34,876 bases of DNA from the NCBI GenBank assembly GCA_964430685.1, contig CAYSGV010000002.1:1-34876 (forward strand). Reading direction: 5' to 3'. The position numbers and the translations under genes were made by a program. Shown here in pieces: positions 4,835 to 9,649 of the stretch (position 1 is its first letter; each line of letters begins with the position of its first letter). Below the pieces are notes generated by a model, which saw only the letters and a program-made list of their open reading frames with translations, was not told where the DNA came from and ran no database searches. The stretch comes from an uncultured Gammaproteobacteria bacterium (lineage in GTDB: Bacteria > Pseudomonadota > Gammaproteobacteria > CAYSGV01).

Positions 4835-6232
4835 TTATTTAGCTGATGATATTTCAGTCATTAACAACAATGTTGAGCGAATTTGTTCTAATTGCACTCT
4901 TGGTTGCAGATGAATTAGACATGAATAGGCGCCTGGTTTGCCGGGCTTTTGCTTAATTTGTACCTTTGCATTAAGTAATGGGTAATTTAATTTTTGATCA
5001 GGTGTTAAATCTTCATTGCTGGCTACGTATTGAATCAACCAAGAATTGATATACGACTCAAATTCTGGTGCGGATAGGAATGAACCTATTTTGGTGCGAC
5101 CAATTATTTTTATATAATGTGCAAAACGGCAAGCACAGAGTAGATATTGTAATGTTGCTGATATTCTTGCATTTATATTCGCAATATTATCGCTATATAT
5201 TTTAGGTGAATGAATGGAATTATTATTATAAAAAACTGCTTTCGCACTGCCTTTTATTTGACATAGACCAATAAAACCAAGGTCAGCAAGCGATTTCTCT
5301 TGAGCATCCGTCAGTAAAAGCTCTACATTATAATTATAAAATATATTCGTATGGTCACTGCTGAAATATATTTCTGGTAAATAATCAATCAAACCGCCAC
5401 TGTGATGAGCTGAAGAACCCTTTAAGTGAACAAACCAGCCTGACTCATAAAAGGAATTCATCAGTACCATTGCAAATGCGTAACCAGCATTGCCCCATAA
5501 ATATTCTTCATGATGTGTGGTATGCTCATGAAATACAAAGCCCATTTTGCCTGCGTAATTTGAAGAATAGGGTAGTCGCACTAAGATACGTGGTAAGACT
5601 AAGCCAATAAAACGCGTATTTTCACCTAGGCGTAGTTTTTCCCATTTGTAATATTCGGCGGTTTTAAAAATCTGCTCTAAGTCCGGTAATTGATCTAAAT
5701 CAGTAAATTGATCAATACCCAGACTAGCAGGGGAGATGCTACTAATAAAGGGCGTAAATGATGAGGCCAATATTTCAGCAAGTGTACTTAAAGCGTTCAC
5801 ATCATCATATTCATCGCGTAGTTGTATTTGATAATCACCAACAATTGCAGTATAAGGCTCACCACCCGGCATACCGAATTCTTGATTGTATAATATGTTA
5901 AATAATTCGCATTGATCAAAATCCAGGGCTTGCAGCAGGTCTTTTTTAGCTTCCAGCCATGATAAATCTAATAATTTGATTTTAATATTTTTTCGTTGCG
6001 TAGCGGGTTTTACTAAACTAAAAAGATTTAACCAAGACGCTTCCAATTGCTGAAAAGTTGGGTGATGTAATATTGTATTTAAAAGTATATTACATCGCTC
6101 ATCAATTTCAGCAATTGTGCGTATAATAATCGATTTAATTTTATCTTGATTGCTTAAATCACAATTAACTTCATTAATTAAATTCGCTATTGAGTTATTA
6201 GCGTTATTATCTATGGCTAATGTTGAAACCAT
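4835..6232 (-). CDS. tssC: Second TssC-like sheath large-subunit paralogue (about 465 aa from ATG 6232)
   Basis: It aligns by eye with the adjacent TssC: GMPGGEPYTAIVGDY vs [15 protein letters not shown], and RFIGLVLPRILVRLPY vs [17 protein letters not shown]-terminal KPGKPGAYSCLIHLQP matches [16 protein letters not shown]. The track start at 6274 is a TTG overlapping tssC. ATG 6232 lies 16 nt after the tssC stop. Confidence 0.85.
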   Translation of the reverse strand: MVSTLAIDNNANNSIANLINEVNCDLSNQDKIKSIIIRTIAEIDERCNILLNTILHHPTFQQLEASWLNLFSLVKPATQRKNIKIKLLDLSWLEAKKDLLQALDFDQCELFNILYNQEFGMPGGEPYTAIVGDYQIQLRDEYDDVNALSTLAEILASSFTPFISSISPASLGIDQFTDLDQLPDLEQIFKTAEYYKWEKLRLGENTRFIGLVLPRILVRLPYSSNYAGKMGFVFHEHTTHHEEYLWGNAGYAFAMVLMNSFYESGWFVHLKGSSAHHSGGLIDYLPEIYFSSDHTNIFYNYNVELLLTDAQEKSLADLGFIGLCQIKGSAKAVFYNNNSIHSPKIYSDNIANINARISATLQYLLCACRFAHYIKIIGRTKIGSFLSAPEFESYINSWLIQYVASNEDLTPDQKLNYPLLNAKVQIKQKPGKPGAYSCLIHLQPRVQLEQIRSTLLLMTEISSAK

Positions 6233-6248
6233 ATATAAATTTAATTTT

Positions 6249-7739
6249 TTAAGACAATTGCGGTATGCGCGCAACTAATCTTAATGATGTTGTTAATTCT
6301 TCTAATTGCAACCAAGGTCGAAGCCAAGCAACTGCATGATATGAGCCAGGTTTTCCAGCTACTTCTTGCACAGTGATTTTAGCTTCTGCCAATGGATATT
6401 TAGATTTCATGTCAGCACCACAATTGGGATTGGCATTGATATAATTCAATATCCAGCGATTTAGCCAAATTTCGGCATCACTTACTTCCATGAATGAACC
6501 AATTTTATCCCGCGCCAGCACTTTCAAATAATGCGCAAAACGTGAAGCTGCCATGATATAAGGTAAACGTGCAGAAATTGCAGCATTGGCTGTTGCATTC
6601 GGATCATCATATTCTTTAGGTTTTTGTACAGATTGAGCACCAAAGAATACAGAATAATCGGTATTCTTATAATGACAGAGCGGTAAAAAGCCTAGTTTAC
6701 TTAATTCTGCTTCACGACGATCAGTAATGCCTATTTCACTTGGGCATTTCAAATCGAGGTCACCATTGTCACTGATAAAGACGTGCGCGGGCAAGTTTTC
6801 TACCTTACCACCGCCTTCAGCACCACGGATAGCCGTACACCAACCGTGTTGTGCAAAAGCATCCGTTAAACGCGCGGCCATAACGAAGCTTGCATTCATC
6901 CAAGTGTAATCGCTATTTCGTACAGTTTTGGCCATACCCTTTTCATCAGTTTCAAATTCTTCAAAATGGAATTCTTCTATCTGTTTTGACTTTTGTCCAT
7001 AGGGTAAGCGCGACAGCACTCTAGGCAACACTAGTGTAACAAACCGTGAATCTTCTGTATCACGAAAACCGCGCCATTTCGCATATTCTACGGATTCAAA
7101 TATTTTCTCTAGGTCACGTGGTTTAGATAAATCGGTCCATTGATCGAGCCCTAATAATTGCGGCGCTGCTGCTGCAATAAAAGGTGCAAATCCCGCTGCA
7201 GCGACACTCGAAATATTATTCAGCAATTGCACGTCATCAGCATTATTTGTAAATTCATAATCGCCAATGAGGGCGCCATATGGTTCGCCACCAGGTGTGC
7301 CATATTCATTTTCATAGATTTTTTTGAAAAAATCGCTCTGATCAAATTCAATGGCTTTGTCCAAATCTTTAAAAAGTTCGCTTTTATGGATGTTTAACAC
7401 TTTGATTTTAAGCGTACTACCACAAAGGGAGTTTTTCACCAAATAGTGCAAGCCACGCCATGAACCTTCTACTTTTTGTAAGGGTTCGGCATGGAGAATC
7501 TCGGCTAATTGTTTTGAGAGTAGTTGGTCAATTGCAGCGATAGCAGAGTTTATGGTTTTAGTTAAGTTTTTATCCCAACTAACAACTCCACTTAAAGCTT
7601 CTTTTGTTAATGCTTTTAATAACTCTTGCGCACGATCAGGTTCAGTTTGCTTTGTAGCTGCAACAACTTGATCTAATAAGCTTTGGCTTTCAGTAGTTGT
7701 TGCGCTTTCGTTTTTTGTTGCAGTTGCGGTATCGTTCAC
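6249..7739 (-). CDS. tssC: TssC (VipB-type) contractile sheath large subunit, 496 aa
   Basis: Canonical TssC blocks are present: [53 protein letters not shown] and [21 protein letters not shown]. The GTG start overlaps the tssB stop as GTGA, with GAGGAGG 7 nt upstream. Confidence 0.93.
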
Positions 7740-8251
7740 GATGTGGCCTCCTCGGTTGCTTCAACTTTTAATGCTTCAGATATTTCTTTTAAGTCATCGC
7801 TGTTTTGCAATATACGTTCAAGTAAACTCTCTAGGTCAGCAGAGCGATCAGCTTTGCTTAGCAATTCACTTAATTTTTTGCGAGTATCGATTAACTTTTT
7901 AAGTGGTTCCACCTGATCAATAATACGGCTAGGTTCAAAATCATCCATAGATTTAAATTCTAGATTTACGGCCATTTCACTGCCATCACCTTTTAGGGTA
8001 TTAGCCACTTTAAGTTCAACAGCGGGAGCCGTGCGTTGCATGACATCATTAAAATTATCGCCGTCAATTTGCACGAACTTTCGTTCTTTAAGCGGTTTTT
8101 TAACGCCTGCATTACCAGAAAAATCACCCATTACACCCAATATAAAAGGTAATTCTTTTTTAACAGTTGCTCCTTCGGTTTCCACATCATAAGTGATATG
8201 AATCCGAGGTTTGCGAACTTTACCTAATTTATCATGTACGCTATTTACCAT
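7736..8251 (-). CDS. tssB: TssB (VipA-type) sheath small subunit, 171 aa
   Basis: [33 protein letters not shown] is the typical TssB N-terminal block. ATG 8251 has AAGGAG upstream. Confidence 0.92.
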
Positions 8252-8327
8252 CGTTTTACTCCTTTATTTATTAGACATCCCACATTATAAAGCTATGGTT
8301 TCGGGCAGATGTCTGAATGATGACATT

Positions 8328-8336
8328 TTGTAACAA
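8328..8336. promoter_or_regulatory. TTGTAACAA motif in the tssA-tssB intergenic gap
   Basis: An exact 9-mer lies 77 nt upstream of the tssB ATG, in the only sizeable gap (108 nt) of the minus-strand operon. Confidence 0.4.
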
Positions 8337-8359
8337 AATATGAATGGAAAAATTCAGTA

Positions 8360-9517
8360 CTAGTAATTTTCATTCTCATTATGTTCGAAATCTTCAGACA
8401 TCGAAGCAAACCGTCCCATATTCCCCATATTGCTCTCATTACTGTTCGGTGCTTGTACACCAATTAATTTATAAATATGTGCTAAAAATTCTGGATTGGG
8501 GATGACTTCTGCTAACCATTCGGGTAATGCTAATTCATTCCAACGAATTGCTTGTTCTAATAAGTAAGCCACGGGTGAATAAGGTTCAGTTTGTTTATAA
8601 AAATCGGCCAATTGCTGAATTAACTGCACTGCTTGCGCTTTTGAAGTTACGTGTTGGTTATTAAAGGATGGGCGCGTGTCACCATTATCTACATCACTTT
8701 TTATTAAATCAGGGGTATTCTGTGCAACAGTGGCTGCAGGTGCAACCATCTTTGCAAATGTTTTAACGACTTCTAAGCAAGATTGTAAAGCTTTTTCAAT
8801 ACCAAAGAGGGTGGGGATATCTGGACCGCATAAATCAGTTATAGCCTGGCTTACCCGACGAAATACTTCTAGACAGGCATTTATTTGTTCAGCGGTATTA
8901 TTATACTGAGTATGTGTATTACTCACCACAGCTTGCCGTATTTCATCTAATGAGAGTACGCCTGTGCTCGCCAGTTTTTTCAAACGGTCTTCATCGGTTA
9001 TTTTTGCATTCTTCAGTGCTTGCTGATATTGCCAAGTAGCAATTGGCATTGCTGGTTCACAAGTCAATGATAAAGAATAAATCGGGGTAATTAGTGCGCC
9101 CTCATTTTGATTACCACTTAAACCAATCAGGGGCATTAATTTCGTTATCACACCATCTTCATCGGGCAAAGGATACAGGCTATCCCAGTAATTAATTAAT
9201 AAACCTTCAATAAGCTCACCTCCTGCCAATAGACCAGGAAATGCACTTACCCGGGTTAAGGCTTCTGTCAACCATGATGCGACAGTCAAATCTTTTGCAT
9301 GTTCTTTAAGATAGGCAGGGGCTAATTCAATTATTTTTCGCCAATTGCGCAAATCTTTTATAGATTCAGTATCAAACATAGAATCGCGTTCTTGTTGACG
9401 TGCCTCTGAACGGGCATCTTTTAATTCAAGAAATAAAGCATGCGAATGGTTACTTATTTCTGAGTTGATAACTTCTTGATTTGGCTCAGCGGAGAGTATT
9501 TCTGCAACATTTATCAT
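8360..9517 (-). CDS. tssA: TssA (ImpA_N-domain) T6SS baseplate/cap protein, 385 aa
   Basis: The ImpA_N-type block is WRKIIELAPAYLKEHAKDLTVASWLTEALTRVSAFPGLLAGGELIEGLLINYWDSLYPLP. It sits at the head of the sheath operon. Confidence 0.85.
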   Translation of the reverse strand: MINVAEILSAEPNQEVINSEISNHSHALFLELKDARSEARQQERDSMFDTESIKDLRNWRKIIELAPAYLKEHAKDLTVASWLTEALTRVSAFPGLLAGGELIEGLLINYWDSLYPLPDEDGVITKLMPLIGLSGNQNEGALITPIYSLSLTCEPAMPIATWQYQQALKNAKITDEDRLKKLASTGVLSLDEIRQAVVSNTHTQYNNTAEQINACLEVFRRVSQAITDLCGPDIPTLFGIEKALQSCLEVVKTFAKMVAPAATVAQNTPDLIKSDVDNGDTRPSFNNQHVTSKAQAVQLIQQLADFYKQTEPYSPVAYLLEQAIRWNELALPEWLAEVIPNPEFLAHIYKLIGVQAPNSNESNMGNMGRFASMSEDFEHNENENY

Positions 9518-9568
9518 TTATTTGATTCTCAAATTTTTAACAGAATAGTATATTAAGTTAGCTGGTTT

Positions 9569-9591
9569 ATTTGTAACATATTGTTACAAAT
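9569..9591. promoter_or_regulatory. Perfect palindrome ATTTGTAACA-TAT-TGTTACAAAT in the tssA/tssJ divergent intergenic region; candidate operator
   Basis: The 10-bp arms (9569-9578 and 9582-9591) are exact reverse complements. The site lies between the two divergent core operons. Confidence 0.6.
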
Positions 9592-9621
9592 TATTACTGT
9601 AGTTGGGTTAGGAATTTTTTA

Positions 9622-9649
9622 GTTACAAATATTTATATTTTGGTAACAA
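9622..9649. promoter_or_regulatory. Degenerate second copy of the motif: GTTACAAA-N12-GGTAACAA
   Basis: The half-sites at 9622-9629 and 9642-9649 resemble the arms of the 9569-9591 palindrome. Their orientation is opposite and the spacing is longer. Confidence 0.3.

Follow-up and report, generated by a model that had tools for sequence, protein, structure and literature searches.

Probable OmpR-type binding sites and type VI secretion

Response regulators of the OmpR family bind to units with a 10-bp period, which are contiguous 10-bp units at ompF and ompC, and the CpxR box has the form GTAAA-N5-GTAAA. In Legionella and Coxiella, a tandem-repeat element recognized by PmrA is located upstream of Dot/Icm effector genes; it is TTAA-rich and has a period of about 11 bp. 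The RstA box TACATNTNGTTACA contains the tandem TACA-N6-TACA (PMC4117788). In Salmonella Typhi, OmpR ChIP-seq peaks yielded the motif TGTWACAW, and mutation of TGTTACAA upstream of tviA abolished the binding of phosphorylated OmpR; this motif is absent from the classical sites at ompF and ompC (PMC3586657). Further, in Yersinia pseudotuberculosis OmpR binds and activates the T6SS-4 promoter, which harbors several boxes (PMC3686713).

Here we analysed the window, a stretch of 34.9 kb that corresponds to a whole metagenomic contig, and a motif recurring in its intergenic regions. The core of this motif is identical to that of the enterobacterial OmpR box: all five exact copies read TGTAACAA or TGTTACAA, and thus TGTWACAA, which fits the OmpR motif TGTWACAW. 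As with the enterobacterial box, there are multiple copies per promoter and they are intergenic. The candidate binder encoded on the contig has a recognition helix nearly identical to that of OmpR (RSIDVQVSRLRQKLEE in the window regulator, RSIDVQISRLRRMVEE in OmpR), and its relatives have an EnvZ-like partner kinase. In contrast to enterobacterial OmpR, however, the window regulator is located in a T6SS cluster, lacks a kinase, scores below the NCBI cut-off, is linked to an MFS transporter in its relatives, and is 38% identical to E. coli OmpR (the E. coli sequence used is consistent with the PDB alignment in its C-terminal part). The window units are also more regular than the ompF and ompC sites, with perfect cores and AAT spacers.

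The resemblance to Yersinia T6SS-4 consists in an OmpR-type regulator and multiple boxes in a T6SS promoter region, with box binding being predicted in our case. While the Yersinia system relies on the chromosomal EnvZ/OmpR, which is unlinked to the cluster, and on one promoter, in the window the regulator is encoded within the cluster, and boxes are present in the two divergent promoter regions as well as ahead of a cargo gene. RstA and CpxR boxes are likewise tandem elements with a 10-bp period, but the window sites have the full core TGTWACA in both units; when AACATATTGTTACA from the window is compared with the RstA consensus, a single specified position deviates. With PmrA the locus would share the principle that an OmpR-family regulator ties secretion effector genes together via a tandem repeat just upstream of the -10 region, whereas PmrA belongs to another regulator subfamily, its element has another sequence, and the secretion system is of type IVB.

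The T6SS cluster and its surroundings

The public runs in which the contig was found originate from activated sludge, and at an identity of at least 99% they contain the same strain, with one difference in 1.6 kb, so that population variation gave no signal. According to the Pfam analysis, the contig carries a type VI secretion (T6SS) cluster with the following layout:

minus strand, with tssA at 8360-9517: clpV, a DUF4280 PAAR-like gene, a MORN-repeat gene, vgrG, two tssC paralogues, tssB and tssA
divergent from tssA, starting with tssJ at 9704: tssJ, tssK, tssL, tssM and a 1212-aa ORF
minus strand, with the 346-aa ORF at 20275-21315 and Hcp at 24819-25301: the 346-aa ORF, an F-box ORF, a 427-aa ORF and a weak Hcp
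plus strand and divergent from hcp, starting with tssE at 25503: tssE, tssF, tssG and the gene of an OmpR-family response regulator (28863-29633)
right end of the contig: a 351-aa ORF, ribF, murJ and an ORF of no assigned function from 33635

In a search of 5.8 billion proteins, the best match to TssA was merely 37% identical, and therefore no close genome could be used for support; an exact look-up of the window TssA also retrieved no identical sequence. The T6SS clusters of the closest TssA relatives (L001-L004, at most 37% identity) have FHA, PP2C and TagF as regulators. They contain neither this response regulator nor the motif and were used solely as negative examples.

A motif enriched in intergenic regions

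A preceding sequence-only reading had drawn attention to the 9-mer TTGTAACAA or its complement TTGTTACAA (TTGTWACAA) at 8328, 9581, 21698, 25385 and 33508. All these positions and sequences proved to be correct, as did the two palindromes with a 3-bp spacer, which are a perfect 10-3-10 palindrome at 9569-9591 and a 7-3-7 palindrome at 21699-21715. The distance between the latter and the 346-aa gene, given as about 385 bp, is 384 bp from the ATG, and the degenerate pair that had been seen near 9622-9649 corresponds to TAGTTACAA at 9620 and TGGTAACAA at 9641. It was also right that no exact copy is located inside a CDS: all five are intergenic, and the nearest copy within a coding sequence is GTGTAACAA at 7034, in tssC. 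Finally, the rough estimates of 35% G+C and of one chance match agree well with the calculated 35.4% and 1.02 +/- 0.99 expected matches, as compared to the five found; none of 100 shuffles reached five. On one point the picture changed, since 25376-25392, which had been taken for a single copy, is also a two-unit site.

The copy at 33508 counts as intergenic because the start of murJ was taken to be the ATG at 33464; the longest ORF would cover the site. The position of the MurJ domain and an A/G-rich stretch upstream of this ATG back the shorter version. Reading by eye, we noticed a near-consensus sigma-70 promoter (TTGAAT-17-TATAAT) at approximately 33567-33595, before the ORF at 33635. The over-long version of the murJ ORF would enclose this promoter, which supports the shorter start as well.

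Since the motif had first been chosen by eye, an unbiased word count was run, for which a first-order Markov model of just the 3,288 intergenic bases served as background. TTGTWACAA was the top 9-mer in the intergenic DNA of the window (5 copies versus 0.117 expected, P 1.6e-7), and the top 8-mer was TTGTAACA. The density of the 7-mer TGTWACA was 2.13 per kb in intergenic and 0.095 per kb in coding DNA, a 22-fold difference. When one mismatch was allowed, the 9-mer showed no enrichment (29 matches versus 23 expected), while the tandem form TGTWACA-N3-TGTWACA with at most one mismatch was found three times (9572, 21699 and 25376) as compared to 0.11 expected matches. The signal resides in the exact cores, above all in the tandem form. 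Importantly for the interpretation, TGTWACA is self-complementary except for its central base, so that two cores separated by a 3-bp spacer can equally be read as an inverted repeat or as tandem units with a period of 10 bp.

A position weight matrix (PWM) trained solely on sites from other organisms (see below) singled out exactly three sites in the window, with 20.8-22.6 bits, the next position having 13.5 bits. The individual sites are:

9572-9598, strong tandem site in the tssA/tssJ divergent region: TGTAACA (9572), TGTTACA (9582) and a weaker TATTACT (9592) with a 10-bp period; 21.8 bits; the ATG of tssA is 55 bp away and that of tssJ 106 bp
9620-9628 and 9641-9649, two one-mismatch units in the same tssA/tssJ region, TAGTTACAA and TGGTAACAA, 21 bp apart and weak alone
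21699-21715, strong tandem site upstream of the 346-aa ORF: TGTAACA-AAC-TGTTACA; 22.5 bits
25376-25392, strong tandem site in the hcp/tssE divergent region: TATTACA-AAT-TGTAACA; 20.8 bits
8329-8335, one exact unit within the 108 bp between tssA and tssB; its partner GATGACA at 8319 is poor; just 10.3 bits
33509-33515, single exact unit in the divergent region between murJ and the ORF at 33635, with no recognisable partner and absent from the 20 best two-unit PWM matches

The operon following the site at 25376 is tssE-F-G with the regulator gene at its end. The site at 21699 is located within an 889-bp gap in which a duplicated gene fragment is found as well. As to the two single units, 8329 and 33509, they are weaker and their function is putative. 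The centre of the 8319/8329 pair is approximately 50 bp upstream of a transcription start site inferred from a perfect TATAAT, and the unit at 33509 is located, as judged by eye, about 50 bp upstream of the -35 region of the good sigma-70 promoter TTGAAT-17-TATAAT.

These results bear on the proposal that the motif ties the 346-aa gene, and perhaps the ORF at 33635, to the T6SS regulon. For the 346-aa gene such a link is plausible because of the full-strength tandem site upstream of it, while for the ORF at 33635, with its one isolated unit, it is weak.

Promoter elements near the sites

All -10 and -35 assignments in this work were read by eye. In the direction of tssA and of the 346-aa ORF, a -10-like hexamer stands 16-17 nt beyond the promoter-proximal unit (TAATAT and AATAAT, respectively; on the minus strand, AATAAT comes 17 nt after the 21699 site). 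With this spacing, the promoter-proximal unit thus occupies the place of a poor -35 region. This reading of the promoter geometry is tempered by the fact that -10-like hexamers are common in DNA with 25% G+C. A scan of the region 8200-9800 with the sigma-70 consensus gave fewer matches than in shuffled sequences. Sigma-54 promoters are common at T6SS clusters; in the window, sigma-54 elements (TGGCAC-N5-TTGCW, at most three mismatches) were found 173 times versus 163 expected, none of them prominent in promoter regions. In Rfam and tRNA scans of the window no match was obtained.

The response regulator encoded in the cluster

The best candidate for the binding protein is encoded in the cluster itself:

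28863-29633, plus strand: OmpR-like response regulator of 256 aa, last gene after tssE-tssF-tssG, with the Pfam domains Response_reg and Trans_reg_C

In the receiver, residues D12, D13, D56 and K105 are conserved. Of the NCBIfam models, OmpR scores best, with 205 bits as compared to a cut-off of 331 bits, and over the whole protein the RstA and CpxR models score below OmpR. Among solved structures, OmpR was the best match to the DNA-binding domain (E 1e-19), followed by RstA (E 1e-14). Since the best model is OmpR but the score is below the curated cut-off, the regulator is to be called OmpR-like and not demonstrably OmpR itself; the EnvZ/OmpR equivalog assignment fails on this score and on the lack of a kinase adjoining the regulator gene in the window. 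Pfam searches of all window ORFs, small ORFs included, detected no other DNA-binding or HTH domain.

The closest homologues of the regulator are 49-52% identical to it, and in their alignment the recognition helix is invariant. Genomic context was retrieved for seven of them. Four (L005, L007, L088 and L091) are located inside T6SS clusters, where the regulator gene follows tssE-F-G-clpV or tssA-B-C-C-vgrG-DUF4280 and is in turn followed by genes for an EnvZ-like kinase and an MFS transporter. The other three (L089, L090 and L092) belong to operons of a response regulator (RR) and a histidine kinase (HK) outside T6SS clusters, with an MFS gene preceding the regulator gene in L089. The EnvZ-like histidine kinase is always next after the regulator in the relatives (196 bits, cut-off 415), and the regulator is the only DNA-binding protein conserved in the related clusters. 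One relative has the tssA/tssJ gene order of the window. In the window, the regulator gene is followed after 115 bp by an unrelated minus-strand ORF, and the kinase and MFS transporter are absent there. Either the window regulator has lost the adjacent kinase and transporter of its relatives, or it never had them.

Recurrence of the boxes in related loci

Together with two further T6SS loci of relatives (L213 and L214), nine relatives' loci were available, and tandem boxes were found in seven of them:

L088, three units TTTCACA-AAT-TGTAACA-AAT-TGTAACT, approximately 114 bp upstream of tssE, equivalent to the window site at 25376
L214, two tandem sites in the 208-bp tssA/tssJ gap, equivalent to the site at 9572
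L213, three units between tssK and tssL
L007, one tandem site that lies downstream of tssM and precedes the operon from tssA to the regulator gene
L089, perfect TGTAACA-AAT-TGTAACA, 85 bp upstream of the MFS-RR-HK genes
L090, CGTAACA-GAG-TGTAACA, 63 bp upstream of the regulator gene
L092, one tandem site in a divergent promoter region 2 kb from the RR-HK genes

Thus several of these boxes stand upstream of the regulator's own operon. The hcp/tssE region of L005 contains merely scattered one-mismatch units, and no box was found in L091, where, however, the T6SS promoters are cut off. Relatives with a G+C content of 40-46% also have the motif. The three strong window sites and the eight sites of the relatives are all intergenic and located 55-170 bp from a start codon, with the exception of 21699 at 384 bp.

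We also considered the central base of the core as a marker for direct versus inverted orientation of the units, but rejected it. The central base is the same in both units at six of the eight tandem sites of the relatives and opposite at three of three in the window. Its variation among sites is consistent with W at this position, and the orientation is not defined by it.

In 140 kb of the relatives' loci there are eight tandem matches, all intergenic, as compared to an expectation of about one per Mb. For the window plus seven loci, eight tandem matches stand against 0.14 expected. As controls we used 80 loci (1.3 Mb) around distant OmpR-family regulators with at most 40% identity, taken from among the matches listed. 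They contained two tandem matches, and none was present in the 350 kb of controls below 45% G+C. Six of eight loci, versus 2 of 80 control loci, contained a tandem match (Fisher 1.4e-6). The earlier suggestion of a cis-regulatory element common to the T6SS promoters is supported, as opposed to a chance occurrence.

The exact 17-mer TGTAACAAATTGTAACA is present in at least 120 metagenome stretches. Of 80 that were retrieved, just two (L123 and L160) have an OmpR-family regulator nearby, and since the other 78 do not, the 17-mer alone is not diagnostic. In two marine metagenome contigs, L135 (1599, 2266 and 3230) and L098 (3030 and 3156), it is part of a longer repeat (e.g. ...gtcaaatcgtaagtcattgaTGTTACAATTTGTTACAat...), which recurs every 0.1-1 kb and represents an unrelated repeated promoter or operator, possibly of phage origin.

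L123 harbors three TGTTACA units in register at 7452-7478, upstream of an RR-HK operon. In L160, three units (the third being TGTTACT) are found at 2667-2693, upstream of a small gene with an LTxxQ motif which looks CpxP/Spy-like by eye and is followed by RR and HK genes. The two regulators are 36-37% identical to that of the window and have a different recognition helix, RTVDITISRLRQKL; their systems are probably CpxR-like.

Which protein binds to the boxes?

The identity of the motif, the OmpR-like domain and the presence of boxes in the loci of the homologues together make the encoded regulator the best candidate binder, and we consider it probable that the motif is an OmpR-type box array read by this OmpR-like regulator (28863-29633). 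That it is this particular regulator which binds is something we infer from these three lines of evidence. Third units in register, as at 9592 and in L088, L213, L123 and L160, fit an array and not a single dyad. Points that do not sit easily with this reading include the distance between site and start codon, which ranges from 55 to 384 nt, the missing kinase, the results for L005 and L091, and the frequency of the 17-mer in metagenomes, where some copies belong to unrelated repeated promoter-like units.

The main competing explanation, to which we assign a clearly smaller but real chance, is that these are genuine OmpR-family sites bound by a paralogue (the housekeeping OmpR, or a CpxR- or RstA-like protein), with the cluster regulator having other targets or sharing the sites. 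OmpR, RstA and CpxR-type regulators recognize related repeats with a 10-bp period, the chromosomal OmpR controls T6SS-4 in Yersinia, and the window regulator has no adjoining kinase. Further, the TGTTACA arrays upstream of the more distant RR-HK operons in L123 and L160 support the site class, yet with CpxR-like systems they indicate that paralogues share the specificity, and therefore the rival stays live. On the other hand, the boxes accompany this regulator family into non-T6SS loci, where they are located directly upstream of its own operon (L089 and L090), the family shows no variation in its recognition helix, and near distant OmpR-family regulators a tandem box is rare (2 of 80 loci). 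This favors the regulator encoded in the cluster over a paralogue.

The sequence-only reading had preferred a dimeric helix-turn-helix protein over the encoded response regulator, arguing from the palindromes. Indeed, the inverted repeats at 9569-9591 (10-3-10) and 21699-21715 (7-3-7) are perfect, and the units of all three strong window sites have opposite central bases. The symmetry, however, is inherent in the self-complementary core, which makes tandem response-regulator sites look palindromic, so that symmetry alone is no ground to exclude OmpR-family binders. At six of the eight tandem sites of the relatives, the two units agree in their central base and the spacers are asymmetric. Three-unit arrays do not suit one dyad, and an HTH regulator is neither encoded in the window nor a conserved member of the related clusters. 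Arrays with units one helical turn apart correspond to the binding mode of the OmpR/PhoB family, and therefore, also in view of the third units in register and the match to the OmpR motif, the argument from the palindrome fails; we regard a palindromic operator of a dimeric repressor or activator other than a response regulator as improbable. Slightly less credit still can be given to the idea that no regulator site is present, and that the motif is a by-product of A/T-rich promoters (-35-like TTGTAA or GTTACA), a REP/MITE-like repeat or an RNA hairpin. GTTACA agrees with TTGACA at four of six positions, -10-like hexamers follow 16-17 nt downstream at the tssA and 346-aa sites, and the 9569-9591 palindrome can form a hairpin with -8 to -9 kcal/mol (z-scores -2.1 and -3.3). 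But the 25376 site does not fold (z-score +0.47), the enrichment persists against the intergenic-trained background and the low-G+C control loci, and the motif recurs in relatives with 40-46% G+C. Moreover, the sites have the short core alone in common and show no extended flanking similarity, a single 29-nt match with 72% identity linking two of them; they are located in divergent promoter regions and not at 3' ends, and have no match in Rfam. In the window and the loci compared, the motif thus does not behave like a generic A/T-rich or REP-like repeat.

A model for the regulation of the cluster

If the sites are read by the OmpR-like regulator, each 10-bp unit (consensus approximately TGTWACAAAT) would be contacted by one winged-helix domain, and two to three units in register would allow cooperative binding of a phosphorylated dimer or oligomer. 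The three full sites would then place both divergent T6SS operon pairs and the 346-aa cargo gene under one signal. Autoregulation is common in two-component systems. Here the regulator gene is the last gene of the tssE operon, and boxes stand before the regulator's own operon in relatives; an autoregulatory circuit is therefore predicted. OmpR- and PhoB-dependent promoters have their sites over or just upstream of poor -35 regions. Because the window sites have such a position, activation of transcription by the bound regulator is favored, as far as the sequence allows such a conclusion.

If confirmed, this would provide a wiring diagram of a T6SS in an uncultured low-G+C bacterium from sludge, with one OmpR-like regulator, three strong operators and autoregulation. 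Further, the PWM could nominate cargo or effector genes in this lineage by their promoters, such as the 346-aa ORF. The proposed switch itself is of an ordinary bacterial kind and raises no new question for T6SS or two-component biology.

It is tempting to speculate, although we are less than convinced, that this T6SS subtype (with two tssC genes and the gene order DUF4280-MORN-vgrG-tssC-tssC-tssB-tssA / tssJKLM) is a self-contained travelling package, which includes an EnvZ/OmpR-like pair, an MFS transporter and TGTWACA arrays before every operon, so that regulator, operators and machine move and evolve together. The copy in the window would have lost the kinase and the transporter, with the orphan regulator still addressing the T6SS operons and newly acquired eukaryote-like cargo genes.

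Further observations on gene content

The two adjacent tssC (sheath) paralogues at 4835-7739 are 37% identical to each other, and such an adjacent pair is kept across all related clusters retrieved, including L001, L003, L007 and L213. An F-box-like ORF (E 1.3e-4) is located at 22205-23224 and a MORN-repeat ORF at 2351-2923, directly 3' of vgrG; their domains suggest cargo aimed at eukaryotic cells, e.g. sludge amoebae. The 346-aa and 351-aa ORFs have no Pfam match even at permissive thresholds, and their single-sequence AlphaFold2 models reached a pLDDT of 30 and 38, respectively, too low to be of use. In the 351-aa ORF (29749-30804, minus strand), a CxxC...CxxC is present near the N-terminus, and by eye the spacing of a 'CAE ... 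PCDGC' near the C-terminus resembles that of deaminases.

Traces of rearrangement are also visible. A fragment copy of the tssM C-terminus is present at 19438-19632 (and at 19944-20144), after the 1212-aa ORF and 4 kb past the end of the real gene. It has 48% amino-acid identity, and nt 19461-19538 are 81% identical to 15362-15439. With a sub-threshold match to a Mutator-like transposase nearby (E 0.021), it looks like a scar left when cargo genes were inserted. Just downstream of the F-box gene there is also a second copy of the 3' end of the 427-aa gene (22019-22188 versus 23329-23499, 78-91% nt identity), and the F-box ORF therefore lies between the gene end and its copy. The box at 21699 is located 300 bp past this copy. 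Finally, a second word, AGTGCTA/TAGCACT, is over-represented in the intergenic DNA (6 copies versus 0.36 expected); it is found at 19275, 19430, 19436, 19560, 21988 and 33608, mostly inside the gap at 19233-20274.
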